DNA of 64,000 nucleotides from Candidatus Collierbacteria bacterium (GTDB taxonomy: Bacteria > Patescibacteriota > Microgenomatia > UBA1400 > JACPES01), in assembly GCA_016183365.1 (NCBI GenBank), contig JACPES010000003.1, forward strand, positions 13,726 through 77,725, given 5' to 3'. This document shows, piece after piece, positions 2,022 to 60,215 of this stretch. The translations under genes were made by a program, and so were the position numbers. Within the stretch, counting starts at the first letter, position 1, and every line of letters starts with the position of its first letter. The notes below the pieces were generated by a model. It did not search any database, had not been told where the DNA came from, and was given only the letters and a program-made list of their open reading frames with translations.

Positions 2022-2167
2022 GTATTTATCTTATCACTATTTTATTTTTCGGACGAGCCCAGATTTTTCTTGACAGAAAAATCTGCAGGTACGCCCGAAC
2101 CCCGTACCGACGCTCTTCGCGAGCGCTCCCGCTCAGCGGGACGGCGCGAAGCAAGTCTGGTATGGGG

Positions 2168-4573: not shown

Positions 4574-5371
4574 GTGAAATTTTTTCTGTGTCCCCTTAAT
4601 TTCAAAGTGAAACGCTTATTCAACTTTCAGAGATTAAAACAGTTGTTGGGCATTATGCTTATCTTGTTGGCTATTGTTTTTAGTCAGACTGTTTTAGTAG
4701 AAAAATTTGGTTTCAGTAACGTCGTTTACGCTCAAGTGCAATGCTGTACCTCACCGGCTCAAGTAACATTTGTTGGCGGAAATGTTTATTGTTCACTTCA
4801 TACCGGAACCGGCATTCCGACAAATTGCTCTGGATCAACCCCTAACTGTGATGTTGAAACTAACCAGTGTATTCCTATTCCCGACATTACTAATCCGCAA
4901 TGCTGTACCTCACCGGCTCAAGTAACATTTGTTGGCGGAAATGTTTATTGTTCACTTCATACCGGAACCGGCATTCCGACAAATTGCTCTGGGAACTGCG
5001 ACGTTCTAACTAACCGATGCATCAATTCTCTCCCCGGCGGCGGGCCGACGATCACCGTCTACGATCCGACGTGCAATTCTGGAACTGGATATTACGGTTA
5101 TTCCGGTGTTAAAAGTGCCTTGGGGTGTTTGCCGACTGATCCGCAAACGTTTATTAATACCGCCACCCCTTGGGCGGTGGGGATTGGAGCCGGAATTGCT
5201 TTTCTACTGGGGCTTTATGGAGCGCTGATGATTGTTATTTCCGCCGGCGACCCGGAAAAAATGCAGGCTGGCAAAGAAATTATTACCAGCGCGATTGCCG
5301 GACTATTATTAATAGTTTTTGCGGTTTTTATTTTAAGAATAATTGGGGTTGATGTATTAAAATTGTTTTAG
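4574..5371 (+). CDS. Secreted protein: duplicated Cys-rich module fused to a VirB2/TrbC-like pilin domain
   Basis: The signal peptide probably starts at MLILLAIVF. Two copies of QCCTSPAQVTFVGGNVYCSLHTGTGIPTNCSG are encoded by a 95-nt exact DNA repeat (4739-4833 and 4898-4992). The C-terminal pilin-like segment is TATPWAVGIGAGIAFLLGLYGALMIVISAGDPEKMQAGKEIITSAIAGLLLIVFAVFIL. Confidence 0.55.
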   Translation: MKFFLCPLNFKVKRLFNFQRLKQLLGIMLILLAIVFSQTVLVEKFGFSNVVYAQVQCCTSPAQVTFVGGNVYCSLHTGTGIPTNCSGSTPNCDVETNQCIPIPDITNPQCCTSPAQVTFVGGNVYCSLHTGTGIPTNCSGNCDVLTNRCINSLPGGGPTITVYDPTCNSGTGYYGYSGVKSALGCLPTDPQTFINTATPWAVGIGAGIAFLLGLYGALMIVISAGDPEKMQAGKEIITSAIAGLLLIVFAVFILRIIGVDVLKLF

Positions 5372-5761: not shown

Positions 5762-6121
5762 ATGCAAACAAAAAACAACCAGAGAACTGATTTACATGAA
5801 AGAATTTTTCGTTGGATAATTTCAGTTCTTAAACTATTAAAGACTGTCAATAAAGATGTCATCAGCATAGTAATAATTCAACAGTTGGCAAAATCATGTA
5901 CTTCTGTCGGAGCAAATGACCAGGAAGCAGTTACTTCTTCTAGCGACAAAGACTTTGTTTCTAAATATCAAATTGTAAAAAAGGAGCTTTCCGAAAGTAT
6001 TTATTGGCTAAGAATACTTAAAGAGATGTATCCTGACATTGACATTTCAAGCCAGTTAAACGAAAGCATTGAACTTCTTAGAATCATTAGTAAAATCATT
6101 CTCAACGTCAAGAATCGTTAA
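5762..6121 (+). CDS. Four-helix-bundle protein (23S rRNA intervening-sequence protein family)
   Basis: Signature SCTSVGANDQEAV.SSS.KDF..K..IVKKELSESIYWLRIL. The gene is flanked by the inverted repeats GGCTAAGGGCTAAAGG (5739-5754) and CCTTAGCCCTTAGCC (6173-6190). Confidence 0.6.
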   Translation: MQTKNNQRTDLHERIFRWIISVLKLLKTVNKDVISIVIIQQLAKSCTSVGANDQEAVTSSSDKDFVSKYQIVKKELSESIYWLRILKEMYPDIDISSQLNESIELLRIISKIILNVKNR

Positions 6122-6902: not shown

Positions 6903-6985
6903 AAAATTGCTAAATTGTTATATTGTTAAATTGGAATACGCACCAATTAGTCCTGCAAAGCAGGATCTGGCTCTGCCAGACAATC
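6903..6985. repeat. About 80-nt hairpin repeat element, copy 1
   Basis: ATTGCTAAATTGTTATATTGTTAAATTGGAATACGCACCAATTAGTCCTGCAAAGCAGGATCTGGCTCTGCCAGACAATCCAGCAAT, containing a TCCTGC...GCAGGA stem-loop, followed by a CAATCTA heptamer array. Confidence 0.5.
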
Positions 6986-7030
6986 CAGCAATCCAACAAT
7001 CTAGCAATCTAGCAATCTGACAATCTAACA
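6981..7030. repeat. CAATCYA heptamer array running into the start codon of pilin gene 3
   Basis: CAATCCAGCAATCCAACAATCTAGCAATCTAGCAATCTGACAATCTAACAATG. Confidence 0.65.
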
Positions 7031-7360
7031 ATGTATTTATTCACAGTCAACATCGGCCAAGATTTAAAACTCCAGGACGATACTCCAATTGGCGACGTCA
7101 TCCAATTCCAAAGCGTCGGAGCCTTGATTTCCGCCTGGCTGCCAAATATTTATATTTTAGGCGGGATTATCGTCTTGATTCTAATCATTGTTTCCGGGTT
7201 TATGTGGATTACCAATGCCGGAAATATTAAAAAAATTGAAGAGTCTCAAAAGATCCTGACCTTTGCTATAATGGGTTTTATATTTTTGTTCGGGAGTTAT
7301 TGGATTATTCAAATAATTCAAGTCCTGACGGGAATACCGATATTGAATTCAAGTTTATGA
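7031..7360 (+). CDS. VirB2/TrbC-like pilin paralog 3
   Basis: Hydrophobic helix (ISAWLPNIYILGGIIVLILIIVSG), then FMWITNAGNIKKIEESQKILTFAIMGFIFLFGSYW. Confidence 0.5.
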   Translation: MYLFTVNIGQDLKLQDDTPIGDVIQFQSVGALISAWLPNIYILGGIIVLILIIVSGFMWITNAGNIKKIEESQKILTFAIMGFIFLFGSYWIIQIIQVLTGIPILNSSL

Positions 7361-7830
7361 AAATACTGAATGAAAAATACCGAATACTGAATAAAAAAAA
7401 GGGCGCATCTGACTTCCCTTATTCAGTATTCAGTATTCAGAATTCAGCATTCGTTTCTCTTGGCATCTTTGGCACCATTAAAAATCCTCTCGGCGATACT
7501 TTTGATAAAGCCGGAGGATACGCATCGGTTGAGGGCGGATTGGGGTTATTACTCACCAATCTCATCCGCTTAACTACCGTCGGCGCCGGCATTTGGTTTT
7601 TGGTCAATTTGATTACTGCCGGGGTGATGTATATCGGCTCCAACGGCGAAACCGAAAAAATCACTATAGCTTGGGCTAAAATTTGGCAATCGTTGATCGG
7701 CCTTTTGATAATCGTTAGTTCTTTGACCCTGGCAGCTATTATCAGTAAAGTATTTTTCGGTAGCTACTCCACCATTCTTAATCCGGTAATCTATGGTCCG
7801 GGCAATGCCGGAGGAGGAAAAATTCCATGA
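7357..7830 (+). CDS. VirB2/TrbC-like pilin paralog 4
   Basis: Starts at the ATG at 7357 (the ORF-track start at 7300 overlaps the previous gene). Core is GAGIWFLVNLITAGVMYIGSNGETEKITIAWAKIWQSLIGLLIIV. A TATTCAG heptamer repeat sits in the N-terminal region. Confidence 0.45.
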   Translation: MKILNEKYRILNKKKGASDFPYSVFSIQNSAFVSLGIFGTIKNPLGDTFDKAGGYASVEGGLGLLLTNLIRLTTVGAGIWFLVNLITAGVMYIGSNGETEKITIAWAKIWQSLIGLLIIVSSLTLAAIISKVFFGSYSTILNPVIYGPGNAGGGKIP

Positions 7831-8669: not shown

Positions 8670-9026
8670 ATGTCATTATTATCAACAGTGTTTGCGGCAG
8701 GAAGCGGAGATATTAATATCGGCCCCAAAGCAACGGCGGCCGGAGTGGACAAAGTAGGCACTATCGGTGATTTAATTGGCGCGGCCATTGGCTCGGCATT
8801 CTTAATCGCCTTCCTGCTGGTATTCGTAATGCTGGTTTTTGGCGGCGTCCAATGGATTACTTCCGGCGGAGACAAAGAAAATACCCAAAAAGCCAAAGAC
8901 CGGATAACTTCCGCTTTGGTGGGAATAGCGATCATCGGCGGAGCTTGGGCTTTAATGAGAGTTGTAGAATTTTTCTTCAACATCGATATCTTGGGTGGAT
9001 TCAAATTGCCGTCGGCGGCGCAATAA
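8670..9026 (+). CDS. VirB2/TrbC-like pilin paralog 7
   Basis: Preceded by an AAGGAGGTGAG ribosome-binding site. Core is GAAIGSAFLIAFLLVFVMLVFGGVQWITSGGDKENTQKAKDRITSALVGIAIIGGAWALM. Confidence 0.5.
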   Translation: MSLLSTVFAAGSGDINIGPKATAAGVDKVGTIGDLIGAAIGSAFLIAFLLVFVMLVFGGVQWITSGGDKENTQKAKDRITSALVGIAIIGGAWALMRVVEFFFNIDILGGFKLPSAAQ

Positions 9027-9043
9027 ACGCGATCCGAATAAGA

Positions 9044-9178
9044 TGATGTCTTGAAGGTGGAAGATGGAAGTCCTTGATCTTGAAACCTTGACGAATCACC
9101 ATCGAGGATTCAAGGTAGCAATCACATCAAGTTCAAAAACCTCAAGAGCATCCATCTTCAAAACATCTATTTCGTGGA
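9044..9178 (+). repeat. About 140-nt palindromic intergenic element, copy A (between pilin genes 7 and 8)
   Basis: Starts GATGTCTTGAAG...CTTGATCTTGAA.CCTTGAC and ends ...ATCAAGTTCAA.AA...CAAGAGCATCCATCTTCAAAACATC. The two ends are inverted repeats of each other. Confidence 0.6.
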
Positions 9179-9211
9179 TTAGTATCGCTTTTCTCTGCTA
9201 TACTTTCAGAT

Positions 9212-9547
9212 ATGAGAGTGTGGGCAGTCGGATTAGTCACCAATGATGCTCCGAATTCTTTGGCCGATATTGAAACGGTAATTAAGAATTTATTGGGATC
9301 GGCTGCCAGCCTGATTGGGTTGGCTATTTTTGTGATGCTGGTGGTCGGAGCCTTTCAATACATTACTTCCGGAGCGGACCAAAAAGCTGTGGAAAAATCC
9401 CGACAAGTATTCACTTTTGCCTTGATGGGCGGAGCCGCGATCATAATTTTATGGCTGGTATTTGTTTTCCTGAAAGAATTCACCGGCATTGACTTACTGA
9501 AGTTTAATATTTGTATATTTCAAGATGAATTCTGCAAATTGCCGTGA
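9212..9547 (+). CDS. VirB2/TrbC-like pilin paralog 8
   Basis: ASLIGLAIFVMLVVGAFQYITSGADQKAVEKSRQVFTFALMGGAAIIILWLVFVF. Confidence 0.45.
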   Translation: MRVWAVGLVTNDAPNSLADIETVIKNLLGSAASLIGLAIFVMLVVGAFQYITSGADQKAVEKSRQVFTFALMGGAAIIILWLVFVFLKEFTGIDLLKFNICIFQDEFCKLP

Positions 9548-18129: not shown

Positions 18130-19245
18130 TTATCTTTCCATTCCAGCTAAAATGTCCACCATTGCCCTCTTAACATTTGTCTCGTTAGGCTGAGCGATTA
18201 GCTTTCCTCCAAGATTTGCTTCAACCGTTACATAGAGACCTAATTTACCATCAGTTTTCATCGTACTAAAACGAATGGCAAAAGTATCCCGGGAAGACTC
18301 TGGTAGATAAAATTCATCTCCTTCTTTGGCCGGATAAGAAAATCCAAAACATTTCTCTGCTAAATACTTAAAACACCTTTTTTGTGTAATCTCAATTGCG
18401 ATTTCATCTCTAAGACTAATGACGTTTTCAGGTGGGGTGTTGACAATAATATGCTGAGATAGTTCTTTCCCTGTATCTAAGAACGACATCGGCTGGCCAC
18501 AAAACGCCGTAATAGACAAGGTTGGCACCCCCTTGTTAACTCCTATGGCCTTTGCGGCTAAACGGTAAGGTGGCTTACTATCCATATCTTCGATAAAAAA
18601 ACCTTTCCCTGCAAATCTATTCGAACCATCGCTTGTTAGATAATTAGTCGACTCCGATATTAATTGCGGAACGTGTAATCTCTCTAAGGAATCAACTGAT
18701 TCTCTGCACATGGGCGAGTCTGCGCTAATTTTTTTTAATTTATTACTAATTATCTCCGGGCGTAACTGCGCCAAGGCTTCTTCTTGTTCTTTTTTCTTCT
18801 TCGCTTCAGCTTCACCCTCTCGCGTACTTCTCAATGCTTGCACCTCATCTATTAGAGATATTAGAGATGGCTCCGTTCCTATGCCAGCGAGGGGGATGGT
18901 CACCTCAGGTATTACTTGTTGTTTGCGTACGCGGATTTCTTCTAGTCTAGCCCTATAATCAGCAAGTAAAATATCTGCTCCTTGAACTTTCACCGTCTTA
19001 ACGCCGCGTTGTGTTTGCTCATCAGCCCACTGAAGAAATTTATTTGTTTGATCTGCTCCCGCCGTTTCGACTTTACCAAAGTAATCAGCAAATGGATCAT
19101 CTCCGCCGCCCATCGCTTTCGGATTAAAACCAATCTCGACGCCCGCAGCGGTAAGTCTAGCGAGCGCTTCAATTCCGGCAGCAGAACCGGAGCCAAGGTA
19201 GGGAAGATTTTCTTCTAATCTTTTCACTTTATACGAGTATATCAA
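18130..19245 (-). CDS. Hypothetical protein (371 aa), first gene of the operon
   Basis: Starts at a TTG at 19245. Its 5' region (19248-19294) is near-identical to 20716-20762. Confidence 0.45.
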   Translation of the reverse strand: MIYSYKVKRLEENLPYLGSGSAAGIEALARLTAAGVEIGFNPKAMGGGDDPFADYFGKVETAGADQTNKFLQWADEQTQRGVKTVKVQGADILLADYRARLEEIRVRKQQVIPEVTIPLAGIGTEPSLISLIDEVQALRSTREGEAEAKKKKEQEEALAQLRPEIISNKLKKISADSPMCRESVDSLERLHVPQLISESTNYLTSDGSNRFAGKGFFIEDMDSKPPYRLAAKAIGVNKGVPTLSITAFCGQPMSFLDTGKELSQHIIVNTPPENVISLRDEIAIEITQKRCFKYLAEKCFGFSYPAKEGDEFYLPESSRDTFAIRFSTMKTDGKLGLYVTVEANLGGKLIAQPNETNVKRAMVDILAGMER

Positions 19246-19247
19246 AC

Positions 19248-19294
19248 GAAGTCAAGTTTTGAAGTCCAAAAGCATTTTCGCCGTCCCGCCTCCG
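19248..19294. repeat. 47-nt shared 5' leader repeat, copy 1 (start of gene 18130..19245)
   Basis: TATATCAAACGAAGTCAAGTTTTGAAGTCCAAAAGCATTTTCGCCG matches 20716-20762 with 2-3 mismatches. On the coding (minus) strand it reads ...GCTTTTGGACTTCAAAACTTGACTTCGTTTGATATA and includes the TTG start. Confidence 0.6.
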
Positions 19295-19503
19295 ACCGAC
19301 TTCCCAAAAACGGCAATCTCCCCGCCCCGATCTCGGTCGCCTGCCTCCCTTCCGACAGCATCCCCGGTGTTGCTCCTTGTTCTATCTTTGACATATTATC
19401 CATAGGGCAGAAAAATCTTGACAACAATTATATCTTATGGTACATTATCCTTGTTCGTGACCCGCAAGGGTTGTGCGGATAAGACTTAAGCCGCAAGCGA
19501 GTT

Positions 19504-20274: not shown

Positions 20275-20733
20275 CTATATAGCCGCATCAGTCCATTGGT
20301 TTTCTCTGATTACCTTTAACACTCTTTGGGGTCCACCTCTAGCCTTTACCCACTTTTCGATAGAGCCCTTAGTCCTCTCTGCTCTTTCTATTTCCTCCCA
20401 AGAGAGAGGAAGAGGAGCAACAAATGGTTCGTCGCCTGCGCCCATGTCGATTAATTCCTCTTGCTTGAAGTTACAAGTCGTTGGAATATATTGTTTCCAA
20501 CTAATTTTAACTGGAGGGGAAATTGCCTCGCGTAACCGAGACAACATCCATGTTGCTGTCTCGTCAGATACTCTTCCTGCCTTAACTTCTCCGTCTAAGT
20601 ATAAGAGGAATATTTTTGCAGGTAAACGAGAATTGGAATCAGGTTGCCAAATCTGATTTCCAAAAGAATCTAATGGATTAAATGTTTCACCTAGTGGCAT
20701 AGATATTACTATAACTATATCAAACGAAGTCAA
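20275..20733 (-). CDS. Hypothetical protein (152 aa)
   Basis: Starts at a TTG at 20733. It shares its 47-nt 5' leader and first codons with gene 18130..19245. Confidence 0.4.
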   Translation of the reverse strand: MTSFDIVIVISMPLGETFNPLDSFGNQIWQPDSNSRLPAKIFLLYLDGEVKAGRVSDETATWMLSRLREAISPPVKISWKQYIPTTCNFKQEELIDMGAGDEPFVAPLPLSWEEIERAERTKGSIEKWVKARGGPQRVLKVIRENQWTDAAI

Positions 20734-20762
20734 GTTTTGGGGTCCAAAAGCATTTTCGCCGC
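20716..20762. repeat. 47-nt shared 5' leader repeat, copy 2 (start of gene 20275..20733)
   Basis: TATATCAAACGAAGTCAAGTTTTGGGGTCCAAAAGCATTTTCGCCG. Confidence 0.6.
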
Positions 20763-20926
20763 CTCGCCGGCAACCGACAGCGGTTACAAAATGTTTCCAC
20801 CGCGCCCCTCGCGCCCTGCCCGCTCGCCCGCATTCAGCTCTGCTGATTGAGGCGTCGCCGCCAACGCCGCCATTCCTTGTCCCGGTTGCAGTTCTTTCAT
20901 ATCATTTTCACTCATAGGCAGCTCAT

Positions 20927-22960: not shown

Positions 22961-22974
22961 AAGTATATGATAAC

Positions 22975-23060
22975 AAAAGGTTAAAAGGCTAACAGGCTAA
23001 AAGGTTAAAAAGGTTAACGGGTTAGAAAGGTTAGAAAAATTAAAAAGTTGAAAAGGCTGA
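22975..23060. repeat. Degenerate AAAGGTT/AAAGGCT tandem array (left flank of the four-helix-bundle gene)
   Basis: GGTTAAAAGGCTAACAGGCTAAAAGGTTAAAAAGGTTAACGGGTTAGAAAGGTTAGAAAAATTAAAAAGTTGAAAAGGCTGAAAA. The reverse complement of this array recurs at 23462-23570, 22290-22335 and 37093-37140. Confidence 0.6.
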
Positions 23061-32844: not shown

Positions 32845-34035
32845 TTGGGAAGTTTCGCAAGCTTCCGTCTCTCCTTGTTACCCCTCTTCCACCAGTATAA
32901 AATTAACCCTATGATTGAACACCCTATTCCTCAAAATGTCACCAGCTACCAGTTCCGCCTCATCGGCGATATGACTTTAAAACAATTCATCGAATTGGCC
33001 GGAGGAGTAGTGGCCGGCTGGCTGATTTGGAGCCTTGATCTGCCAGCAATTATCCGGTGGCCCATGGTAATCATGGCGGTAATTTTGGGGTTTGGATTGG
33101 CGTTTATGCCCCTGGAAGATCGGCCGCTGGATCAATGGTTTATCGCCTTTTTCCGGGCCATTTACCGGCCAACCATTTTTGTCTGGAAAAAAGCTGTCCG
33201 CGATGATATTTTAAGCTTTCAGGCTAGCCCGGCAGAATCAAAATCCGTTTTAGAATCTGCGGTTAAAATGCCCACGGCCAAGCTTGAGTCTTTGTTGGCC
33301 GGCTATAAGATAAATGAGGCAGTAGAAGCCGATCCATTACTGGATGCTTGGGAAAAACGCTTGGCAGCCGTTCCGCAATTATTTTCCGAAGTCACGGTGC
33401 CTAAAAAACTAGCCGACGTAACCGTCTTTCCTCAAGTCAGGGCGGTAGATTTAAGCTATCACGTTTCGGATTTAACCCCAGTCCTCCATCCATTAACTCC
33501 ACCAGAGGATCCGGATGCCATTCTGCGGGGGGAAATTACTTTACCGGCCCACCGTCTCCGAGTCCCGCAGAATTTACCGATAGCCATTGGCGATGCCCCG
33601 GCTAAACCTGCACTTCTCGTCAAACGCGGAGATTCTTTAAGTCAAATAGGGACATCTGAAATCAAACTCCCGTCTTTTAATACGGCCGTTGTCAAGTCCA
33701 GAACCGGAGCCGTTTCGGCAACAGTAATGCAATCCTTAATCTTGCCATCCAGCCCATCTATTCCTAATGTCCTGACCGGAATTGTGGTAACTTCAGACGG
33801 ACAAATCGCTGACAATGCCATTGTTGAAATCCGGCGCCTGACCGATCATCTACCGGTTAGAGCCGTTAAATCCAATAAACTCGGACATTTTGCCATTGCC
33901 ACTCCTTTAGAAAATGGAAGTTATGAAATCCTGACGGACAAAGACGGTCTGGCCTTTGGTATACTCAAAATTGACGTCGGGGGCTTGATTATGCCGCCGA
34001 TTGAAATTAGAGCAAAAAAAGAAAAGATGTCTTGA
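32845..34035 (+). CDS. PrgI/VirB3-like membrane protein with a C-terminal beta-sandwich extension
   Basis: N-terminus YQFRLIGDMTLKQFIELAGGVVAGWLIW...PMVIMAVILGFGLAFMPLEDRPLDQWFIAFFRAIYRP matches the PrgI-family layout. It lies upstream of VirB4, as prgI does before prgJ. Confidence 0.5.
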   Translation: MGSFASFRLSLLPLFHQYKINPMIEHPIPQNVTSYQFRLIGDMTLKQFIELAGGVVAGWLIWSLDLPAIIRWPMVIMAVILGFGLAFMPLEDRPLDQWFIAFFRAIYRPTIFVWKKAVRDDILSFQASPAESKSVLESAVKMPTAKLESLLAGYKINEAVEADPLLDAWEKRLAAVPQLFSEVTVPKKLADVTVFPQVRAVDLSYHVSDLTPVLHPLTPPEDPDAILRGEITLPAHRLRVPQNLPIAIGDAPAKPALLVKRGDSLSQIGTSEIKLPSFNTAVVKSRTGAVSATVMQSLILPSSPSIPNVLTGIVVTSDGQIADNAIVEIRRLTDHLPVRAVKSNKLGHFAIATPLENGSYEILTDKDGLAFGILKIDVGGLIMPPIEIRAKKEKMS

Positions 34036-34168
34036 AGATAGAAAATAGATATTCTTGATCTTGAATTCTTGACAGCTTGACTATCTGATCAAGGAATCAA
34101 AAAATCAATCCGCCAGCCGGCGGATCAAGTTCAAGAATTTCAAGAATATCCATCTTCAAAATATCTTA
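34026..34168 (+). repeat. About 140-nt palindromic intergenic element, copy B (between the prgI-like gene and ORF 34178)
   Basis: Shares the GATGTCTTGAAG start, the CTTGATCTTGAA(TT)CTTGAC block and the ATCAAGTTCAAGAA...TATCCATCTTCAAAATATC end with copy A. Its centre is CCGCCAGCCGGCGG. Confidence 0.6.
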
Positions 34169-34870: not shown

Positions 34871-37092
34871 AGATTCCTTTAATCACCAATATTTTTAAGA
34901 CTAAAAAACCGGAGAATCCAAAAAATCAAGATATTTCGCCGGCAATGCAGTTTGCCCAGGGAATTACCACTATTCAGGATATCTTGGCCCCGGATGCAAT
35001 TGAGGTTGACTTTACCCACCTTAAAATCGGCAACCGGCTGGTCCGAACCCTATTTGTGGCCGGTTATCCGCGTTTTGTGGCCGCCAACTGGCTGTCTCCT
35101 TTGATAAACTTTGACCACTCTTTGGACGTTTCCATGTTTGTTTATCCGGTTGAAGGCAAGGGCGTTTTGGAAAATCTGCGGCGGAAAATCACCGAAATGG
35201 AAGCCGAGATTAATTCCGACCTGCAGCGCGGCCGGCTGGCCAATATTGATACTCAAGTCAAGCTGGAAGACGCCAAAGGGCTGCAGGAACAGTTGGCCAA
35301 GGGGTCTGAACGTTTTTATCAATTTAGCCTGTACGTGACCATCGGATCAGACACCGAAGAAGAACTGAATCAGATCTCCAAACAAATTCAATCCACATTA
35401 GGGTCTCTTTTGATCATTGCCAAACCGGCGTCTTTCGTCATGGAACAAGCCTTTAAAACCACTCAACCGCTGGGTCAGGATTTTTTAAATATTACCCGGA
35501 ATATGGATACCACTTCTCTGGCAACCACTTTTCCGTTTACTTCCAGCGAACTCTCGGCCAATGAGGGAATTTTATACGGAATCAACGAGCATAATGATAG
35601 TTTGGTGGTATTTGACCGCTTTTCCAGAGAGAACGCGAATATGGTCGTATTTGCAAAATCGGGCGCGGGAAAGTCGTTTTTCGTCAAACTTGAAGCCCTG
35701 CGGTCGTTAATGTTTGACACCGAAGTTATCGTCATCGATCCGGAGGACGAATATCACCGGATGGCCGACGCCGTCAACGGCCAATATATTGATTTTAGTT
35801 TTTCATCCAAGGTTAAAATAAATCCTTTTGACCTTCCCTCTTACGCCCGCGGAGAATCCGGACAGGCAGGAGAAAACGAACTATCGCAAAAATTGCTTTC
35901 GCTTCACGCCCTAATGAAAATAATGCTTGGGAGCATGGACGCCACCCAAGAGGCCATCTTAGATCGAGCCTTAATCGCCGCCTATAAAGCCAAAGGCATC
36001 AGCCCCAATCCGGAATCGTTTAATAACGAACCCCCTCTTTTGGAGGATTTATATAAATCTTTGATTGGAATGGAGGCCCCGGGAGCCGAGAACTTGGCCG
36101 CCAGATTGGAAAAATTTGTCAAAGGCAGTTTCCGCGGACTGGTGGACCAAAAAACCAATGTCAACTTGACCAGCGACTTTATCGTCTTTGGAATCAAGAA
36201 TCTGGAAGACGCGCTCCGGCCGGTGGCCATGTTTATGATTCTGGATTTTATTTGGACCAAAGTAAAATCCCAACTTAAGCGCCGGCTATTAATAGTAGAC
36301 GAGGCTTGGTATTTGATGAAAAACCAGGATTCAGCCCTGTTTTTATACTCTATGGCCAAACGAGCCCGTAAATATTATTTGGGGTTGACTACCATTACTC
36401 AAGACGTCGAGGACTTCTTGCATTCTGACTACGGTAAGGCTATCGTCACCAATTCCAGCATTCAAGTCCTGATGAAGCAGTCGGCGGCGGCGGTTGACTC
36501 TCTCCAAGAAGCCTTTTATCTATCCGCCGGGGAGAAACAACTCTTAATGGCTTCAGAAATTGGCGAAGGGTTGTTTTTTGCCGGCCAAAACCATGTGGCC
36601 ATTAAGGTTGTCGCCAGCCCGGAAGAACACAAATTAATCACCAGCAAGCCGCAGGAAATATTAGAAATGGCAAAGCAACGGGGACAACCCGAGGAGAGCG
36701 CCAACCCCGTAATTGCGACACCACAACGTCCCGATTTGATCGGGGGGAGTGGCGAGCATACTACTGGGGTTCCGGAGAGCAATTACTGGAAACCTCCAAA
36801 ACCGGCCGGACAGGAGTCTTTGGCTCTAAATGAAATCGAAGTGGACGTAATTAAAGATCAGAATACTCTAAAAACTCAGATTGCCGGAGAATCGGAAAAT
36901 AAGAGAGTCGGGCTATCGGATAATCGAATTTCCAGGAAGCCGGCAACTCCCGAGCCTCCGAATCTCCGGCAATCTGGCCATCCGAGTGTTCCGAGTATTC
37001 AGAAAACTCCGCTAGCCCCAAATGCCGCCGTCCAACCATCCATCGAATTTACTTCGATATTTGAAACTCAGCCGAAAAAAACAACAGAATAG
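34867..37092 (+). CDS. virB4: VirB4/TrbE/PrgJ-family T4SS ATPase
   Basis: Walker A VFAKSGAGKSFFV, Walker B RRLLIVDEAWYLM, and the TTITQDVEDF motif. The N-terminal domain pattern is typical of Gram-positive VirB4. It has a C-terminal Pro-rich tail. Confidence 0.8.
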   Translation: MKIPLITNIFKTKKPENPKNQDISPAMQFAQGITTIQDILAPDAIEVDFTHLKIGNRLVRTLFVAGYPRFVAANWLSPLINFDHSLDVSMFVYPVEGKGVLENLRRKITEMEAEINSDLQRGRLANIDTQVKLEDAKGLQEQLAKGSERFYQFSLYVTIGSDTEEELNQISKQIQSTLGSLLIIAKPASFVMEQAFKTTQPLGQDFLNITRNMDTTSLATTFPFTSSELSANEGILYGINEHNDSLVVFDRFSRENANMVVFAKSGAGKSFFVKLEALRSLMFDTEVIVIDPEDEYHRMADAVNGQYIDFSFSSKVKINPFDLPSYARGESGQAGENELSQKLLSLHALMKIMLGSMDATQEAILDRALIAAYKAKGISPNPESFNNEPPLLEDLYKSLIGMEAPGAENLAARLEKFVKGSFRGLVDQKTNVNLTSDFIVFGIKNLEDALRPVAMFMILDFIWTKVKSQLKRRLLIVDEAWYLMKNQDSALFLYSMAKRARKYYLGLTTITQDVEDFLHSDYGKAIVTNSSIQVLMKQSAAAVDSLQEAFYLSAGEKQLLMASEIGEGLFFAGQNHVAIKVVASPEEHKLITSKPQEILEMAKQRGQPEESANPVIATPQRPDLIGGSGEHTTGVPESNYWKPPKPAGQESLALNEIEVDVIKDQNTLKTQIAGESENKRVGLSDNRISRKPATPEPPNLRQSGHPSVPSIQKTPLAPNAAVQPSIEFTSIFETQPKKTTE

Positions 37093-37188
37093 AAGGTTAA
37101 AAGGATTAAAAAGGTTGAAAGGTTACAAGGCTGGAAGGTGAGTTTTTTTCAACCTGCCAACTTTTAGCCTGCCGACCTGGATTTCTCG

Positions 37189-38503: not shown

Positions 38504-39931
38504 CTAGGCTATTCTCTTTCTGACTTCAGCTAAAGCCCCCCTCAAATGGGCGTTGGTGGCTAGCTCGGCTGTTATTTTATCCGTGGCGTGAATAACAGTG
38601 GAATGGTCTCTGCCTCCAAAAATCCGGCCAATGGAGACCAATGGTAACTGGGCTTCGGTTTTTAAAATATACATGGCTAAATGGCGCGGAATAACCAAAT
38701 CTTTTTGACGACGGCCCCCCTTTATCTCTGCGGACCTGATCCCGAAAACCTCGCAAACAGCGGAGATAACACTGTTGGGAGAAATTTTAGTCAACGGCTG
38801 ATTTTGATTACTGCTTTCAGATGTATTTGCCTTGAACGATTTAATTACTTTCTCGGCAACCTCAATTGTAATTTTATTCCCATGGATTTGGGTTTCCGCC
38901 AATAGTCGTTTTAAGACACCTTCCAAAAAGCGGGTGCTTTCGATATTTCCGGCGATTAATTGAGCCACGTCCATGGGGATGTCTATCCCCCAAGCTTTAG
39001 CCTTAATTAAGACGATGGCAGCGCGTAATTCAAAACTAGGCTGTTGGATATCAATGGTTAAGCCACCCTCAAAACGGCTTTTTAATCTGGCTTCCAACCC
39101 CAAGATTTCGCTGGGGAACTGGTCGCTGGTTAGGACAATTTGTCCGCCCTCCTGATGGATGGCGTTGAAAGTATGGAAAAATTCTTCCTGGACCTTGTCT
39201 TTGCCCCCGATAAATTGGATGTCATCAAGCATCAGGGCTTTGACGGATCGGTATCTTTTACGGAATTCGGCCGTGGTTTTATATTGAATGGCCTCGATAA
39301 TTTCATTGGTAAATTGTTCAGCGCTGCGGTAAATGACTTTGGTTTGAGGGTCGGCTTCCAAAATCCGATGGCCGATCCCCTGCATCAAATGGGTTTTGCC
39401 CACTCCCACTCCGCCAAACAAAAATAACAGGTGGTAGGCTTGACCCGGATTGCGGCTAACGGCTTGAGCGGCGGCATAGGCCATTTCGTTGGTGGAACTA
39501 ACGGCGAATTGTTCAAACGTAAAATCCGGCCTTAAATGGGCGGCTTGAGTACTGCGGTGATAGGCGGCCCGGGAATCATCGGCCGCCGAAAAAAGCGGCC
39601 CGTATGAAGATAACGGTAAAGTCTGTTTGGAGTCCGGGGCGGCCAAAGTAAACTGCAGCTCGCAGCTTTTATGAGTAACTCTTTCAAAAGCATCTTTAAT
39701 CTGTTGGCTGCAGTTGGTTTTAATCCATTGTTGGTGGAAAGATGACGAGGCTGCTAGCAGGGCGGAAATTTTTTCTTCGTCTTCTTCTACTTTTTCTAAT
39801 TTGGTCTGGGAAATAAAGGAGCTGAAGGTTCCGGCAGACAGCTCCACCCTTAAATCTTCCTGAACAGTTTTCCACAGCTCAATCGTATTCATATCTAGGG
39901 CAAATTTATAAAGTTTTCCACACTTAGTCAA
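38504..39931 (-). CDS. dnaA: Chromosomal replication initiator DnaA
   Basis: AAA+ Walker A LFLFGGVGVGKTHL, Walker B ALMLDDIQF, and a C-terminal DNA-binding domain (VIPRHLAMYIL). Confidence 0.92.
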   Translation of the reverse strand: MTKCGKLYKFALDMNTIELWKTVQEDLRVELSAGTFSSFISQTKLEKVEEDEEKISALLAASSSFHQQWIKTNCSQQIKDAFERVTHKSCELQFTLAAPDSKQTLPLSSYGPLFSAADDSRAAYHRSTQAAHLRPDFTFEQFAVSSTNEMAYAAAQAVSRNPGQAYHLLFLFGGVGVGKTHLMQGIGHRILEADPQTKVIYRSAEQFTNEIIEAIQYKTTAEFRKRYRSVKALMLDDIQFIGGKDKVQEEFFHTFNAIHQEGGQIVLTSDQFPSEILGLEARLKSRFEGGLTIDIQQPSFELRAAIVLIKAKAWGIDIPMDVAQLIAGNIESTRFLEGVLKRLLAETQIHGNKITIEVAEKVIKSFKANTSESSNQNQPLTKISPNSVISAVCEVFGIRSAEIKGGRRQKDLVIPRHLAMYILKTEAQLPLVSIGRIFGGRDHSTVIHATDKITAELATNAHLRGALAEVRKRIA

Positions 39932-39948
39932 GAAGAAAAAAAGACGAA

Positions 39949-39977
39949 GGGCTTGTTAAGTCAATAAAGACCAAGTA
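39949..39977 (+). promoter_or_regulatory. Sigma70-like promoter for rpmH (TTGTTA, 17-nt spacer, TAGAAT); mRNA probably leaderless
   Basis: The -10 element ends 4-10 nt before the rpmH ATGs at 39981 and 39987. Confidence 0.4.
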
Positions 39978-39980
39978 GAA

Positions 39981-40151
39981 TATGTTCATGGCGAAAACGA
40001 AAAGAACTTATCAGCCTTCCAAAGTCCACCGGGCCCGGACGCACGGATTCAGAAAAAGAAGCTCGACTAAAAGCGGAAAGAACATTTTACGCGACCGTCG
40101 CCGAAAAGGCCGGAAAAAAATGGCGGTAAAAGTGTGGAAAAAGGCTCATTG
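39981..40151 (+). CDS. rpmH: 50S ribosomal protein L34
   Basis: Hand translation: (MF)[54 protein letters not shown]. It is missing from the ORF track because it is under 60 aa. Confidence 0.85.
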
Positions 40152-40160
40152 AAAGAAGGA

Positions 40161-40240
40161 ATGGCTACAATGGCTACAATGACTACAATGGTTTGATACT
40201 TTTAACCATTTTAACCATTTAACCATTTTAACCATTTAGT
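40161..40240. repeat. Heptamer tandem-repeat arrays (GGCTACAAT x3, then TTTTAACCA x4)
   Basis: Direct tandem repeats seen in the sequence between rpmH and rnpA. The same TTAACCATT motif recurs at 1383-1425 and 48858-48900. Confidence 0.7.
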
Positions 40241-40243
40241 CGT

Positions 40244-40575
40244 TTGCTCCCTAAACGTTTCAGACTCTCCAAACAAGAATTTAAACAGGTAATGGACGAT
40301 GGCCAAATGGCGTCGGGAAGGCTGATGGGGATAATAATAGGGACAAGGGACAAGGGACAAGGGAATTGCCAAAAGCGGGAATTATTGTCAGCAAGAAATT
40401 GTCGAATAAAGCCGTGGTCAGAAATAAATTAAAACGGCGGTTGCGGGCGGCGCTGCAGGCTGTTTTGCCGGAAATTCATTCAGAACCGCACTTGGTAGTA
40501 CTGCCCAATCGTCGCGCCCTCAACACTTCTGTCGGGGAATTGGAATCCGAGCTTCGTTCTATCCTAACAATTTAA
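40244..40575 (+). pseudogene. rnpA: RNase P protein component, reading frame broken at a GGGACAA heptamer repeat
   Basis: Frame 0 reads MLPKRFRLSKQEFKQVM...IIIGTRDKGQGN and stops at 40432. The +2 frame from the TTG at 40366 reads LPKAGIIVSKKLSNKAVVRNKLKRRLRAALQ..., the RnpA core. The junction is the GGGACAA x3.6 repeat at 40340-40365, and removing two units restores one ORF. Confidence 0.6.
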
Positions 40576-40601
40576 CAATTCAGCAATGTACCAATGAAAT
40601 A

Positions 40602-40817
40602 ATGAAACGCTTATTTATTTTCGCCATTAACTTTTATCAACGCCTGAAGCGTTTTTTAGGCCTGTCTTCAGTTTGCCGTTTTACACCGTCTTGTTCCGAA
40701 TACGCTAAACAAGCCATAGACCGCCATGGTATCATCAGGGGATCGTCGCTGGGGTTTAAACGAATCTTTCGTTGTCATCCGTGGTCAAAAGGAGGATTAG
40801 ACTCAGTGCCGAAATAA
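40602..40817 (+). CDS. yidD: Membrane protein insertion efficiency factor YidD
   Basis: FYQRLKRFLGLSSVCRFTPSCSEYAKQAIDRHGIIRGSSLGFKRIFRCHPWSKGGLD. Confidence 0.85.
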   Translation: MKRLFIFAINFYQRLKRFLGLSSVCRFTPSCSEYAKQAIDRHGIIRGSSLGFKRIFRCHPWSKGGLDSVPK

Positions 40818-40819
40818 AA

Positions 40820-40955
40820 AAATTTCCAATTTACAATTTACAATTTTCAATCAAATCTCAATTAACCAATTTTCAATTTTTAATTAAATGCTTGTGTCAT
40901 TTAAAATTCATTCTTTGAAAATTCATTGTAAATTGAAAATTGAGAATTGAAAATT
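40820..40955. repeat. AT-rich tandem-repeat array (CAATTT/CAATTTA/GAAAATT units) upstream of yidC
   Basis: TCCAATTTACAATTTACAATTTTCAATC...AATTGAAAATTGAGAATTGAAAATTAG. The left and right halves are inverted copies. Confidence 0.6.
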
Positions 40956-41744
40956 AGTCAAGCCATGTTCAACACTTATCTCTATCAACCAATCTTGCAG
41001 TCTTTGATCTTTTTCTATCACCTGTTGGGAGATTCCTTCGGGTGGGCGATTATCGGAATGACTTTTGTGATCCGGTTGCTTTCGGCCCCATTAACAATTC
41101 CGGCCATGCGGGTCCAACAGAAACTGCAGAAACTCCACCCCGAATTGGAAAAACTTAAAAAGACACATACTGATAAGAAGGAACTGCAAAAAGCCCAACT
41201 GGAACTTTACCGCCAACATGGAGTTAATCCCGGCGCCGGGTGTCTGCCGCAAATCGTTCAGATAGTTATTTTGATCGCCCTTTATCAAGTATTTATGAAA
41301 TTTTTAAATGGCGGAATGGTTGATGGTCAGGCCGTAAATATGAACTTTTGGTGGCTAGATTTATCCAAACCGGATAAATATTATATTTTGCCCTTCTTGG
41401 CCGGAACCACCCAGCTGGTTTTTTCCATGATGCTAAAGCCGGGAACGGAACACCATGAAGAAAGCAGAAAGATTGTTGAAAGAAAAGAAGAGTCCCGCGG
41501 AACGGGATCCGGCTCCGCCGGAAAAACAGAAATGGATATGGCCACTGAAATCCAAAACCAAATGTTGTTTATGATGCCGCTGATGACAACCATAATCTCG
41601 TTAAAATTCCCCTCCGGCCTGGCCCTATATTGGGTAATGACCACTGTTTTTTCCATAATCCAGCAATGGATAATGACCGGTCCCGGAGGCTTAAGATATT
41701 TTTTCAAAAAAGCCCTTGATATAATTGGCATATGGAAGAAATAA
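40947..41744 (+). CDS. yidC: YidC/Oxa1-family membrane protein insertase
   Basis: Core segments IRLLSAPLTIPAMRVQQKLQKLHPELEKLKK and GCLPQIVQIVILIALYQVF, in the conserved rnpA-yidD-yidC-jag order. Confidence 0.85.
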   Translation: MKISQAMFNTYLYQPILQSLIFFYHLLGDSFGWAIIGMTFVIRLLSAPLTIPAMRVQQKLQKLHPELEKLKKTHTDKKELQKAQLELYRQHGVNPGAGCLPQIVQIVILIALYQVFMKFLNGGMVDGQAVNMNFWWLDLSKPDKYYILPFLAGTTQLVFSMMLKPGTEHHEESRKIVERKEESRGTGSGSAGKTEMDMATEIQNQMLFMMPLMTTIISLKFPSGLALYWVMTTVFSIIQQWIMTGPGGLRYFFKKALDIIGIWKK

Positions 41745-47657: not shown

Positions 47658-47675
47658 TCTCCGGAAGATTGCTAA

Positions 47676-47756
47676 ATTGTCCTGCGGAGCAAGATCCTGC
47701 TTTGCAGGACTAAATGCCTCCACAATTTAACAATCTAACAATTTAACAATCTAACA
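47676..47756. repeat. Partial third copy of the hairpin element plus a CAATCTA/CAATTTA heptamer array
   Basis: GATTGCTAAATTGTCCTGCGGAGCAAGATCCTGCTTTGCAGGACTAAATG then CAATTTAACAATCTAACAATTTAACAATCTAACAATG, which runs into the tsaC-tsaE start codon. Confidence 0.4.
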
Positions 47757-48857
47757 ATGAAAATCCTTAACCTGAAAGAAACCTCTAAACATGACGCTAC
47801 CGCTCAATCAGTTAAAATTCTCCGAGCTGAGGGCCTTGTCATCTACCCCACCGAAACCGTTTACGGCGCCGGAGTTGATGCTACCAATCCGGCGGCGGTA
47901 AAAAAACTGGGCGAATATAAATCTAGGCCATTCGGCAAACCTTTTTCAATTGCCGTAGCCGATTGGAAAATGGCGGAAAAATATGTGGTTTTGAATGAAA
48001 CCGCCAAAAAACTTTACCGGCAATTTTTGCCCGGTCCGTTAACAATAATATCTAAACTAAAAACACTTAATTCTTCTAACCCTTCTAACCATTTTCTTTC
48101 TCCCGGCGTCGCCTCTGAAGCCGGAACACTGGGGATTAGGATTTCATCGTATCCGCTGGTTGCGAAAATTGTCAGGTCGTTGGGCAGGCCAATTACCGCC
48201 ACATCCGCCAACGAGGCTTACAAAAAAAGGCCATATCAGATATCAGATATTTTATTTAATATTTCAGACAGGAAGAAACAGCTGATAGATTTAATTATTG
48301 ATGCCGGAGAATTGCCGAGAAATGAACCGTCAACAGTTATAGACACCACTTTGGACGATCAGACAGTTCTGCGTCAGGGAGATATTCAATTAAAAGATAA
48401 AATCCACATTTTGTCCAGGACTCCGGAAAATACTCAAAATCTGGCCAAAGAACTATGGCAAAAATATGAGGGGTTCGTTGGAAAACGAGCGATTATTTTT
48501 GCTCTCGAAGGCCAACTCGGAGCAGGCAAAACCGAATTTACCAAAGGCCTGGCCCGGGCAATGGGGATAAAAAAGGAAATTACCTCGCCAACATTCAATT
48601 TGGTGAATCATTATTCTTTACTCTTTACTCCCTACTCCTTACTCCATATTGACGCTTGGCGTCTTGAATCATCATCAGAACTTGGATCATTGGACTTTTC
48701 TAAAACAATATCCGATAAGTCGGTGATAGCGGTAGAATGGGCCGATCGGGTAACAAACGTCATTCGCCGCTATCAGGAAGAAGCTGTCATCATCTGGGTC
48801 AAAATTAAATACGGAAAGTCCAAAAACGACCGTTTAATCAGCTGGGGAATTTTTTAG
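47757..48857 (+). CDS. Fusion of threonylcarbamoyl-AMP synthase (TsaC/YrdC domain) with the tRNA t6A ATPase TsaE
   Basis: N-half: LVIYPTETVYGAGVDA, SANEAYKKRP, PSTVIDTT (YrdC). C-half: EGQLGAGKTEFTKGLARAMGI, SPTFNLVNHY, HIDAWRL (TsaE). Two heptamer repeats are embedded in frame (LNSSNPSNHF and SLLFTPYSLLH). Confidence 0.7.
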   Translation: MKILNLKETSKHDATAQSVKILRAEGLVIYPTETVYGAGVDATNPAAVKKLGEYKSRPFGKPFSIAVADWKMAEKYVVLNETAKKLYRQFLPGPLTIISKLKTLNSSNPSNHFLSPGVASEAGTLGIRISSYPLVAKIVRSLGRPITATSANEAYKKRPYQISDILFNISDRKKQLIDLIIDAGELPRNEPSTVIDTTLDDQTVLRQGDIQLKDKIHILSRTPENTQNLAKELWQKYEGFVGKRAIIFALEGQLGAGKTEFTKGLARAMGIKKEITSPTFNLVNHYSLLFTPYSLLHIDAWRLESSSELGSLDFSKTISDKSVIAVEWADRVTNVIRRYQEEAVIIWVKIKYGKSKNDRLISWGIF

Positions 48858-48903
48858 CCCTTTAACCATTCTAACCATTTAAATAATTTTAACCATTTAT
48901 CTT

Positions 48904-50004
48904 ATGACAATTCTTTCTATCGACACCAGTTGCGACGAAACAGCTGTCGCGGTTACAGACGGAAACAGGGTTTTAAGCAATATTATCTGGTCCCAGGCCT
49001 TGCTCCATTCTAAATGGGGTGGCGTTGTTCCGTCTCTTGCCAAGCGCGCCCACCAAGAACGTCTTCCTTGGGTTGTCTCCAAAGCGGTTCACGATTCACG
49101 GTTAACGATTAACGAAATTGATGCCATTGCGGCAACGATTGGGCCGGGATTGGCGATTGCGCTGGAGGTGGGAATTGCCAAGGCAAAAGAATTGGCCCTG
49201 AAGTGGCATAAGCCATTAATTCCGGTGAATCACCTCGAGGGCCATATCTTAAGCCCGTTAGCCTGGTCAACAATCAGCAATCAGCAATTAACAATTAACA
49301 ATTTAAACTTTCCCTTCGCGGCCCTCGTAGTTTCCGGCGGTCACACAGAGCTTGTTTTAGTTAAAAAGATAGGCGAATATCAAATTTTAGTCCGAACAAT
49401 AGATGATGCTTTGGGAGAGGCTTTGGATAAAGCCGCCAGGATGTTAGGATTGGGGTATCCGGGAGGCGCGGTGTTGGAAAAATTGGCCAAAACCGGAAAT
49501 CCTTCAACCTATAAACTGCCATTGCCATTATTAGGCCGGGAAAACCAAGGTAAATTCAGTTATTCAGGATTAAAAACCGCTTTTTATCGGTTAACAAACG
49601 AAAAAAGTTTAACGAAGCAAGAAATTTACGATCTAGCCGCCAGTTTTCAAAACACTTCTTTTGAGCATTTGATAAGAATTGTTAAAAAGTCGGTTTTGTC
49701 ATTGCGAGCCACGCTACAGACGGGACGTGGCAATCCAGAAATTACTGATTTTCTAGTCGGCGGCGGCGTCGCCTCCAACATCGAACTTCGCAAAAGGCTG
49801 CGGAATCTTGGAAAAAAATTCGGACTGAAAATTCATTTTCCCTATTCCAAAAAACTCTGTACCGACAATGCCGCCATGATTGGTCTGGCAGGGCAATGGG
49901 CCTTTGCGAGAGGCGAACTGAAACGAACAAAAGAAGAAATAGAATCAATTGACAGAATTCCCGGACTGGATTTTTCTTTAGGCCTACCTCTTTCTCGCGC
50001 ATAA
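48904..50004 (+). CDS. tsaD: tRNA N6-adenosine threonylcarbamoyltransferase TsaD (Kae1/Gcp)
   Basis: ILSIDTSCDETAVAV, HLEGHIL and VSGGHTELV motifs. An in-frame CAATTAA-type repeat encodes STISNQQLTINNLNF. Confidence 0.85.
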   Translation: MTILSIDTSCDETAVAVTDGNRVLSNIIWSQALLHSKWGGVVPSLAKRAHQERLPWVVSKAVHDSRLTINEIDAIAATIGPGLAIALEVGIAKAKELALKWHKPLIPVNHLEGHILSPLAWSTISNQQLTINNLNFPFAALVVSGGHTELVLVKKIGEYQILVRTIDDALGEALDKAARMLGLGYPGGAVLEKLAKTGNPSTYKLPLPLLGRENQGKFSYSGLKTAFYRLTNEKSLTKQEIYDLAASFQNTSFEHLIRIVKKSVLSLRATLQTGRGNPEITDFLVGGGVASNIELRKRLRNLGKKFGLKIHFPYSKKLCTDNAAMIGLAGQWAFARGELKRTKEEIESIDRIPGLDFSLGLPLSRA

Positions 50005-58269: not shown

Positions 58270-58340
58270 ATTGTTAATTGAAATACACGCCAATTAGTCC
58301 TGCGAAGCATGATCTGGCCCCGCCAGACAATCTAGCAAAT
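58258..58340. repeat. About 80-nt hairpin repeat element, copy 2
   Basis: TATTGTTAAATTGTTAATTGAAATACACGCCAATTAGTCCTGCGAAGCATGATCTGGCCCCGCCAGACAATCTAGCAAAT, about 85% identical to copy 1. It lies immediately before the start of the YidC-like gene. Confidence 0.5.
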
Positions 58341-60142: not shown

Positions 60143-60215
60143 AATTTCAGATTTCAGAATTCATATTTTCTGAAAAAATCTGCAATCTGAAATATAAAAT
60201 CTGAAATAATTCAAT

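Follow-up and report, generated by a model that had tools for sequence, protein, structure and literature searches.

Is a long hairpin that is found twice within the type IV secretion system (T4SS) genes of one bacterium a conserved signal of those operons, or a sequence that has moved into them? The question is raised by a stretch of 64,000 nt (hereafter the window, the whole stretch of DNA that was analysed, to which all coordinates refer) from a Candidatus Collierbacteria bacterium (assembly GCA_016183365.1, contig JACPES010000003.1), which belongs to a lineage of the Microgenomates group within the Patescibacteria. One palindromic copy (copy A) lies between genes seven and eight of a cluster of PF18895 'T4SS pilin' genes; the other (copy B) has a PrgI-family gene upstream and a TraC-like gene downstream, followed by a gene for a VirB4/TraG-type ATPase. 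An earlier sequence-only reading had offered two interpretations, namely an intercistronic RNA structure that co-regulates the two T4SS blocks, or a mobile repeat resembling a miniature inverted-repeat transposable element (MITE). The second is borne out by orthologous sites that are filled in some genomes and empty in others, and by copies dispersed at unrelated junctions, and the repeats are interpreted here, with a probability of roughly 0.7, as a small AT-rich, non-coding palindromic insertion element of Microgenomates-group Patescibacteria, comparable to MITEs and to the Rickettsia palindromic elements (RPEs). The element is probably selfish.

Anatomy of the two copies

The two palindromes of about 140 nt recognized in the sequence-only reading are both present. 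The core of copy A, from terminus to terminus, occupies 9045-9167 (plus strand, 123 nt) between PF18895 pilin genes at 8670-9026 and 9212-9547, and copy B occupies 34026-34165 (plus strand, 140 nt), from the PrgI-family gene (32845-34035) to the TraC-like gene, whose ATG is at 34184 (the mechanical start of the open reading frame (ORF) being a TTG at 34178). The core of copy A is surrounded by an extended imperfect palindrome (9031-9183, plus strand), the outer arms of which, gatccg...cgtggatt, also pair, and the whole 185-nt spacer folds with -52.9 kcal/mol. Copies A and B are 80% identical by column and have 12-nt inverted termini in common, GATGTCTTGAAG...CTTCAAAAYATC. The shared ends that had been described, GATGTCTTGAAG on the left and CTTCAAAA[CT]ATC on the right, prove to be mutually inverted. 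The left and right terminal inverted repeats (TIRs) lie at 9045-9056 (GATGTCTTGAAG) and 9156-9167 (CTTCAAAACATC) in copy A and at 34026-34037 and 34154-34165 (CTTCAAAATATC) in copy B, all on the plus strand. The left TIR of copy B encodes the C-terminal residues of the PrgI-like protein (..MS) together with its TGA stop codon (34033-34035); the intercistronic siting originally given is correct as to the flanking genes, but copy B contributes the last three codons and the stop of the PrgI-like gene. Likewise, one of the two internal blocks held to be common to both copies, CTTGATCTTGAA, is found in each, whereas the second reads ATCAAGTTCAAAAA in copy A and ATCAAGTTCAAGAA in copy B. The GC clamp noted at the centre of copy B, CCGCCAGCCGGCGG (34110-34123), is present and has no counterpart in copy A; on the minus strand it is followed by a T-run and is terminator-like. 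As predicted, each copy folds as RNA into a long imperfect hairpin, with -41.6 kcal/mol (z = -3.2) for copy A and -50.7 kcal/mol (z = -6.9) for copy B. A pattern built from the two arms had no occurrence in 100 shuffles of the window, the copies score against the family profile with E-values of 1e-27 to 1e-29, and the sequence of copy A is identical across six independent Logan assemblies and is therefore not an assembly artefact.

Eight copies were analysed in total: A and B, two from related T4SS loci (L082 and L077) and four from elsewhere (L002, L066, L070 and L076). They measure 112-140 nt and have a GC content of 27-41%, against 39-49% in their flanks. All carry the 12-nt TIR GATRTYTTGAAG, the conservation of which is partly imposed by the search pattern in the copies outside the window and is independent for A, B, L082 (left end) and L077. 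Each arm is 50-60 nt long and made up of repeated 7-8-nt units, which read nnnTTGA on the 5' side and TCAAnnn on the 3' side; autocorrelation of the arms is strongest at 7-8 nt (z about 7) and shows the harmonics of this period at 14-16, 22-24 and 30 nt, and one extra unit of 7 nt is found within the 5' arm. In the sense orientation TGA recurs every 7-8 nt and all three frames are closed within 10-16 codons in 8/8 copies, whereas the reverse orientation leaves one frame open over 16 codons or more and, in four copies, across the whole element. Because of these three-frame stops, only short tails of 5-10 residues are added where a native stop codon has been replaced.

A repetitive palindrome of this kind might also be a guide-RNA array such as TIGR (tandem interspaced guide RNA), since TIGR-Tas loci have been reported in Candidate Phyla Radiation (CPR) genomes and some variants are palindromic stem-loop arrays (PMC12045711). 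In a TIGR array, units of about 36 nt follow one another in tandem, with two spacers and with edge and loop repeats in alternation (PMC12045711). The period observed here is instead 7-8 nt, with z = -1.3 at 18 nt and 0.2 at 36 nt, and the unit is a single long palindrome rather than a tandem array. Box C/D motifs are not present in the element, and a Nop-domain Tas gene was found neither next to it nor among the large ORFs of the window. On these grounds, a guide-RNA array is scarcely credible.

Filled and empty orthologous junctions

Syntenic loci were fetched via homologues of the PrgI-like protein and of a 954-aa protein encoded downstream of copy A, and the element was compared at three orthologous junctions. 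At site B, between the PrgI and TraC-like genes, the spacer is 142 nt long in the window and 4, 2 and 1 nt long in the relatives L078, L079 and L081, the PrgI proteins of which show 83%, 82% and 76% identity, respectively. In these three relatives the protein ends in ...IEIRAK(E)* and is followed, after 1-4 nt, by ATGCCTGTCCAACC, whereas the protein of the window ends in ...IEIRAKKEKMS*, where MS* comes from the terminus of copy B. Among twelve PrgI homologues, the tail KKEKMS after the conserved ...PPIEIRA is confined to the window's own cluster, and relatives at 86-87% identity end in KQ or RLANNQ. A different, weakly palindromic insert is located exactly at the site-B junction in L077 and L080.

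At site A, between pilin genes seven and eight, the spacer is 185 nt long in the window, 153 nt long with a homologous copy in L082, and 17 nt long in L083, with gene order around the site fully conserved in L082 and L083. The L082 copy is 82% identical to copy A over aligned columns, the flanking genes having 72-78% nucleotide identity. As L082 and L083 share about 88% amino-acid identity with each other and about 75% with the window, the tree is (window,(L082,L083)), on which site A requires one of two histories: the element entered early and was later lost precisely from L083, or it entered this junction twice independently. Site C, between the TraC-like and VirB4 genes, holds a copy in L077 only, which was recovered by nhmmer with a profile built from the copies (E = 5e-23) and which supplies the C-terminal tail DVSKVEDRSP*; in five other genomes, including the window, the same site is a 4-nt ATGA stop/start overlap. 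Full-length identity among copies at the three junctions or in different genomes is 77-85%. Together, the filled and empty states of sites A, B and C show that the element is acquired or lost as a whole where the stop of one gene meets the start of a co-oriented neighbour.

Homologous copies at unrelated junctions

The two-arm pattern was also scanned against the GTDB species-representative genomes, metagenome contigs and viral contigs. The species-representative genomes gave 51 matches, only one of which is relevant, a 122-nt palindrome between a DHH-family gene and a HIT gene in a Candidatus Gottesmanbacteria metagenome-assembled genome (L002); the other 50 were discarded as chance matches in unrelated taxa without palindromy. 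From the 19 matches in metagenome contigs, L066, L070 and L076 were kept, L067 being the same sequence as L002, while repeats from termite gut (L060, L061, L065 and L072-L074) and perfect fold-backs (L063, L064 and L068) were rejected as unrelated. Viral contigs gave 0 matches to the pattern. The L066 copy begins 4 nt 3' of a sortase gene and has a central GC clamp, CCGTCAGCTGACGG, analogous to that of copy B; the L070 copy lies at the junction of a small ORF and a LytR_C gene, and the L076 copy at that of a 268-aa gene and a sortase gene, with the stop of the 268-aa gene overlapping the terminus. None of these four copies (0/4) is near T4SS genes, which runs counter to the T4SS association expected from the sequence-only reading. 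The genes at the edges of the window were used to reach further source DNA; the Logan contigs obtained in this way (3-7 kb) held no new copies.

Homology was re-tested with the termini masked, using a profile made from the interiors of the four Collierbacteria-clade copies only. The L070 and L066 copies proved truly homologous (E = 1e-8 and 7e-8, respectively), and L076 was marginal (E = 8e-4 vs 5e-3 for the best negative control). The element thus occupies at least three junctions in Collierbacteria-like genomes as well as unrelated junctions elsewhere.

Possible roles in the T4SS operons

The alternative that had been put forward for the T4SS is that of a cis-acting intercistronic RNA hairpin, such as a processing or stability site, an attenuator or a protein-binding site, which would co-regulate the pilin and PrgI/VirB4 blocks. 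It would account for the position of the A, B, L082 and L077 copies inside T4SS operons in the sense of transcription, and indeed every orientable copy (A, B, L082, L077, L070, L066 and, weakly, L076) is in sense orientation relative to flanking transcription. In addition, each window copy folds significantly better than shuffled sequence, and the L082 copy is as conserved as the adjacent coding DNA. Against this, the same junctions are empty in syntenic T4SS operons of close relatives, so that the element is not part of a conserved operon design, and related copies adjoin sortase, LytR_C and HIT genes. There is moreover an ascertainment bias, since L082 and L077 were retrieved as T4SS loci.

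The RNA itself was examined in several ways. The compensatory changes expected of a selected RNA structure found no support: RNAalifold recovered only the outer 20 pairs from the eight copies, with a covariation term of +0.53 kcal/mol. Searches of Rfam with the whole window at gathering thresholds, and with copy A at E-values up to 10, returned nothing credible (best E-values 3-10). In 7/8 copies the more stable fold is that of the antisense strand and not that of the mRNA strand, and mismatches of arm against arm on the sense strand comprise 28 A·C vs 18 G·U, the opposite of what is expected under selection for an mRNA hairpin. No plus-strand terminator-like site or U-tract was found at either window copy, only the clamp of copy B scoring, on the minus strand, and promoter and terminator scans gave counts no higher than in shuffles. 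Thus, with no covariation, a more stable antisense strand, no G·U bias, no U-tract and no Rfam match, the palindromy is a property of the DNA element; the mRNA hairpin is a consequence of it, and no sign of selection on the hairpin was seen. A conserved co-regulatory RNA of the T4SS is accordingly improbable, and this half of the earlier proposal was not upheld.

The siting in T4SS operons could alternatively reflect a DNA site for the secretion machinery, for instance an oriT-like hairpin recognized by a relaxase. Such a site would be consistent with the imperfect inverted repeat and with the fact that the strand folding slightly better as DNA is the lagging-strand template. There are, however, two copies per locus, within operons and not beside a relaxase gene, none of which was found in the window, and the element is missing from the T4SS loci of relatives and present at non-T4SS sites. 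An oriT was rejected on the grounds of synteny, motifs and the lack of a relaxase in the window, and any such role for the element is very remote.

In the same region (38504-40601), dnaN and dnaA are minus-strand genes and yidC is a plus-strand gene, and the curve of cumulative GC skew is lowest at about 38-40 kb. These genes and the skew minimum place the replication origin beside the second T4SS block, and both T4SS operons are therefore head-on to replication. The minus strand, which is the lagging-strand template, is slightly more stable in the DNA fold, by 0.8-1.9 kcal/mol; differences of this size are too small, and an argument based on the replication strand was dropped.

Other junction palindromes and a possible formation in place

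The element is not the only palindrome at gene junctions in the window. A second family is found at 6906-7041, 47658-47756 and 58246-58340, the members of which are 87-89% identical and have ATTGnnnn / nnnnCAAT arms, a conserved core and small GC hairpins (TCCTGCAAAGCAGGA and CTGGCTCTGCCAG). The junction between UppS and a 109-aa protein, which holds the palindrome at 6906-7041, is 0-1 nt long in L082 and L083. Another palindrome, at 7362-7452 with units AATACTGA / TCAGTATT, lies at a junction of 2 nt in these relatives and is open in frame, which results in a 157-aa gene call (7357-7830) with an apparent N-terminal extension of 34 residues relative to the 123 aa in L082 and L083. Given that the corresponding junctions measure 0-2 nt in both relatives, the palindromes at 6906-7041 and 7362-7452 are also insertions. 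The family of copies A and B is, so, one of several junction-palindrome families in the window with units of 7-9 nt.

Further palindromes are located at 60128-60223, between groES and groEL (8-nt units ATTTCAGA / TCTGAAAT, z = -3.9), and at 40818-40961, upstream of yidC (8-nt units AATTTACA / TGTAAATT). One-sided tandem arrays of 8-9-nt units (ACAATCTA, TAACCATTT) abut start codons on the coding strand, for example ...ACAATCTAACAATG; they are found at 1364-1429, 6972-7041, 22974-23053 (minus strand), 37091-37136, 40190-40245, 40559-40612, 47714-47767 and 48850-48906. In L080, an in-frame expansion of CAATGA units at the site-C junction ends in the ATG of the next gene, which suggests slippage of start-proximal sequence.

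Such arrays raise the possibility that the palindromes are made in place, by replication slippage (tandem duplication of 7-8 nt) and template switching, and owe their similarity to ectopic copying or gene conversion. Junction arrays that have periods of 7-9 nt and differ in unit sequence abound in the window and in its relatives and would fit this explanation, as would the 7-8-nt periodicity of the element itself and the extra 7-nt unit of its 5' arm, the different insert at exactly the site-B junction in L077 and L080, and the CAATGA expansion in L080. Short tandem duplications are also found around start codons beside filled sites (TGCCTA/TGCCTG and AACCTATG/AACCTACC), and the lack of a target-site duplication (TSD) points the same way. 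Copies at three junctions and in different genomes have, however, common 12-nt termini as well as high identity over their full length, and the interiors of the L070 and L066 copies are homologous even with the termini masked. Full-length homology across different junctions requires some copy-and-insert step, and formation in place is consequently unlikely.

Comparison with known repeat families

The criteria for MITEs were taken from section 2.1 of PMC10969869, according to which these elements are shorter than 500 bp, encode no transposase, have TIRs of about 4-30 bp and are flanked by direct repeats, at least in young copies (PMC10969869). The element shares with them its size (about 110-140 nt) and lack of coding capacity, its TIRs, its AT-richness, its siting at junctions, a stable hairpin and the occurrence of filled and empty sites; it departs from them in having no TSD.

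Closer likenesses are found in the Correia elements (CREE) of Neisseria and the ERIC sequences of enterobacteria, which are likewise non-coding, AT-rich imperfect palindromes of about 100-150 nt with conserved TIRs, located in transcribed intergenic or intercistronic positions, present or absent at orthologous sites, and able to form long hairpins in transcripts. Correia hairpins are substrates of RNase III, and ERIC hairpins alter mRNA decay (PMC2649163, PMC10969869). Because Correia hairpins are cut by RNase III (PMC2649163), a side-effect of the present element on operon mRNA is plausible by analogy. Unlike Correia elements, which duplicate TA, the element has no TSD; unlike both families, no related insertion sequence or transposase was found for it, its apparent copy number is low, its arms have the 7-8-nt TTGA/TCAA periodicity, and it sits tightly at stop/start junctions, at times replacing the stop codon.

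RPEs are palindromes of about 100-150 bp in the reduced genomes of host-dependent bacteria, and they can overlap coding sequence and change the encoded protein (PMC10969869, PMC1458961). The element resembles them in adding C-terminal tails of 5 residues (copy B, KEKMS*) and 10 residues (L077). RPEs, however, lie in frame inside genes and are translated through, whereas the element lies at gene ends and read-through is cut within 16 codons. REPINs and their RAYT transposases offer another parallel, as REPINs are hairpins of about 100 nt without a TSD, extragenic near gene ends, and persist for long at orthologous sites (PMC3116915, PMC3337134). A REPIN is composed of two inverted, short, self-palindromic REPs; the element is not so built, its 12-nt terminus is not a REP-like hairpin, and its copy number is apparently far lower than in typical REPIN populations. 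L002 contains, in addition to a copy with the element's termini, a RAYT-like gene at 1711-2531 for an IS200-like Y1 transposase (PF01797, with HUH and YxxxNP motifs), which lies between palindromes TTTGCAAGAGGNCCTCTTGCAAA in the classic RAYT/REP arrangement. A RAYT/REPIN mobiliser modelled on L002 was nevertheless rejected, as TTTGCAAGAGGNCCTCTTGCAAA is unrelated in sequence to the element and absent from the window, which has no Y1 gene; tblastn of the window with a Y1 transposase gave no match.

Integron attC sites are also imperfect, variable palindromes with conserved ends, located directly after the stops of co-oriented ORFs, and one of their strands folds slightly better. They were rejected because the core motifs R''/R' (RYYYAAC / GTTRRRY) are absent from the termini by inspection, the flanks are syntenic chromosomal genes and no integrase was found in the window. 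Full-text searches of the literature returned no MITE-like or palindromic junction repeats for Patescibacteria or Microgenomates.

Further features of the window and its relatives

An arm-like fragment at 62297-62326 (plus strand), 77-83% identical to the right arms, lies in the C-terminal tail of a split cytidylate kinase gene. This arm-only match is not significant by nhmmer (E = 0.75), and the fragment is possibly a remnant of the element, without statistical support. The cytidylate kinase gene itself (61862-62330) is split into 87 aa and 81 aa in different frames, both matching PF02224, and the same split is present in an independent Logan assembly.

In the pilin region, the first pilin-domain gene (4574-5371) has a perfect 96-nt direct repeat (4738-4833 / 4897-4992, spacing 159 nt), by which 53 codons inside the gene are duplicated in frame. 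A PF05635 gene ('23S rRNA-intervening sequence protein', a four-helix-bundle family) is located at 5762-6121, where it separates the second pilin gene from uppS; as the pilin-uppS gap measures 28-60 nt in L082 and L083, this gene is an insertion in the window lineage. A GC-rich 146-nt spacer between minus-strand genes (2022-2167, minus strand) forms two tandem hairpins (-67.3 kcal/mol, z = -7.2) and had no Rfam match at the gathering threshold; it may represent a pair of terminators or a small RNA that has escaped annotation. A 63-nt direct repeat (19238-19300 / 20716-20778, 89% identical) coincides with the 5' ends, or with the regions upstream, of two ORFs that lie 1.5 kb from each other on the minus strand.

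Around the second T4SS block of the relatives, the VirB4/TraG-type ATPase of L078 (5792-9107) is interrupted by an intein that carries a LAGLIDADG endonuclease (PF14890, PF14528); the orthologue in the window has no such intein. In L077 (3269-3929) and L079 (3287-3959), a probable toxin-antitoxin pair, consisting of an 82-aa ORF and a gene with a PIN domain, is inserted immediately before the PrgI-like gene; it is not there in the window or in L078.

Mobilisation and significance

Several observations weigh against a mobile element. No transposase, integrase, relaxase or Nop-domain protein was found among the large ORFs of the 64-kb window, and no autonomous partner with the same termini was found, the scans of the collections being unable to span TIRs kilobases apart. 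A TSD, which young classical MITEs have, was sought in the eight copies with a boundary slack of +/-4 nt, and the best direct repeat was 2-4 nt, no better than at random site pairs. The interior of the L002 copy has no detectable homology (E = 1.2), so that only termini and architecture are common to it and the others. In the Collierbacteria-like clade, 4/4 known copies are in T4SS operons, two of them having been found only through the fetching of T4SS loci, which biases this count; for the two window copies by themselves, with some 28% of the window's junctions situated in T4SS clusters, the probability of both falling there by chance is about 0.08. The apparent copy number is low, with two copies in 64 kb and one GTDB representative genome with an exact-termini match, and the copies differ by 15-25%, which gives no sign of a recent burst. 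Finally, the orientation bias, which for 5-6 independent insertions has a p-value of about 0.03-0.06, is likewise predicted by a sense-strand RNA role; it may arise from selection against the orientation that is more stable or has the long open frame, from strand-specific insertion, or from a sense-strand role.

The best reading of the evidence as a whole is that of a new family of small non-autonomous palindromic repeats in Microgenomates, unusual in the lack of a TSD, the targeting of junctions, the stop-trap arm and the orientation bias. The enzyme that copies such an element would act in trans, from a gene at another place in the genome. As there is no TSD and mobilisation would depend on the hairpin, single-strand-DNA mobilisation (HUH/Y1-type) or a hairpin-templated process would fit better than DDE cut-and-paste. 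On landing at a gene end, the element replaces the native stop and adds only a short tail, and it would persist at junctions because other targets in a compact genome would be lethal, leaving these as the sole non-lethal ones. Once co-transcribed with the operon, it would form an mRNA hairpin that may break stop/start translational coupling and could serve as a substrate of RNase III. Any effect on T4SS expression would then be a by-product and not a conserved regulatory design.

A broader and more tentative proposal, which is possible but doubtful at present, is that each Microgenomates genome harbours several families of an undescribed, TSD-less class of junction-invading palindromes, with arms of 7-8-nt units, one preferred orientation and a three-frame stop trap. 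These would insert precisely at stop/start sites, rewriting gene termini and uncoupling genes, and, unlike classical MITEs, may be mobilised through single-stranded hairpins by a RAYT-like Y1 enzyme or another activity. If this were true, such palindromes would account for a large share of the intergenic DNA in these ultra-compact genomes and of the variation at protein ends, including that of surface and T4SS genes.

Few known genomes are as compact as those of CPR/Patescibacteria, and next to nothing has been charted of their small mobile repeats. The present element indicates that probably selfish palindromes are tolerated even in these genomes, at the few permissive places that operon junctions provide, where overlapping stop/start pairs become structured spacers of 100-190 nt and the C-termini of proteins are rewritten. 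Gene callers mis-set starts and stops near such inserts, as in the 157-aa call at 7357-7830, and the inserts are usable as markers of strain and species history. Hairpins of this kind in the T4SS and pilus operons of CPR bacteria should not be taken as conserved regulatory signals.

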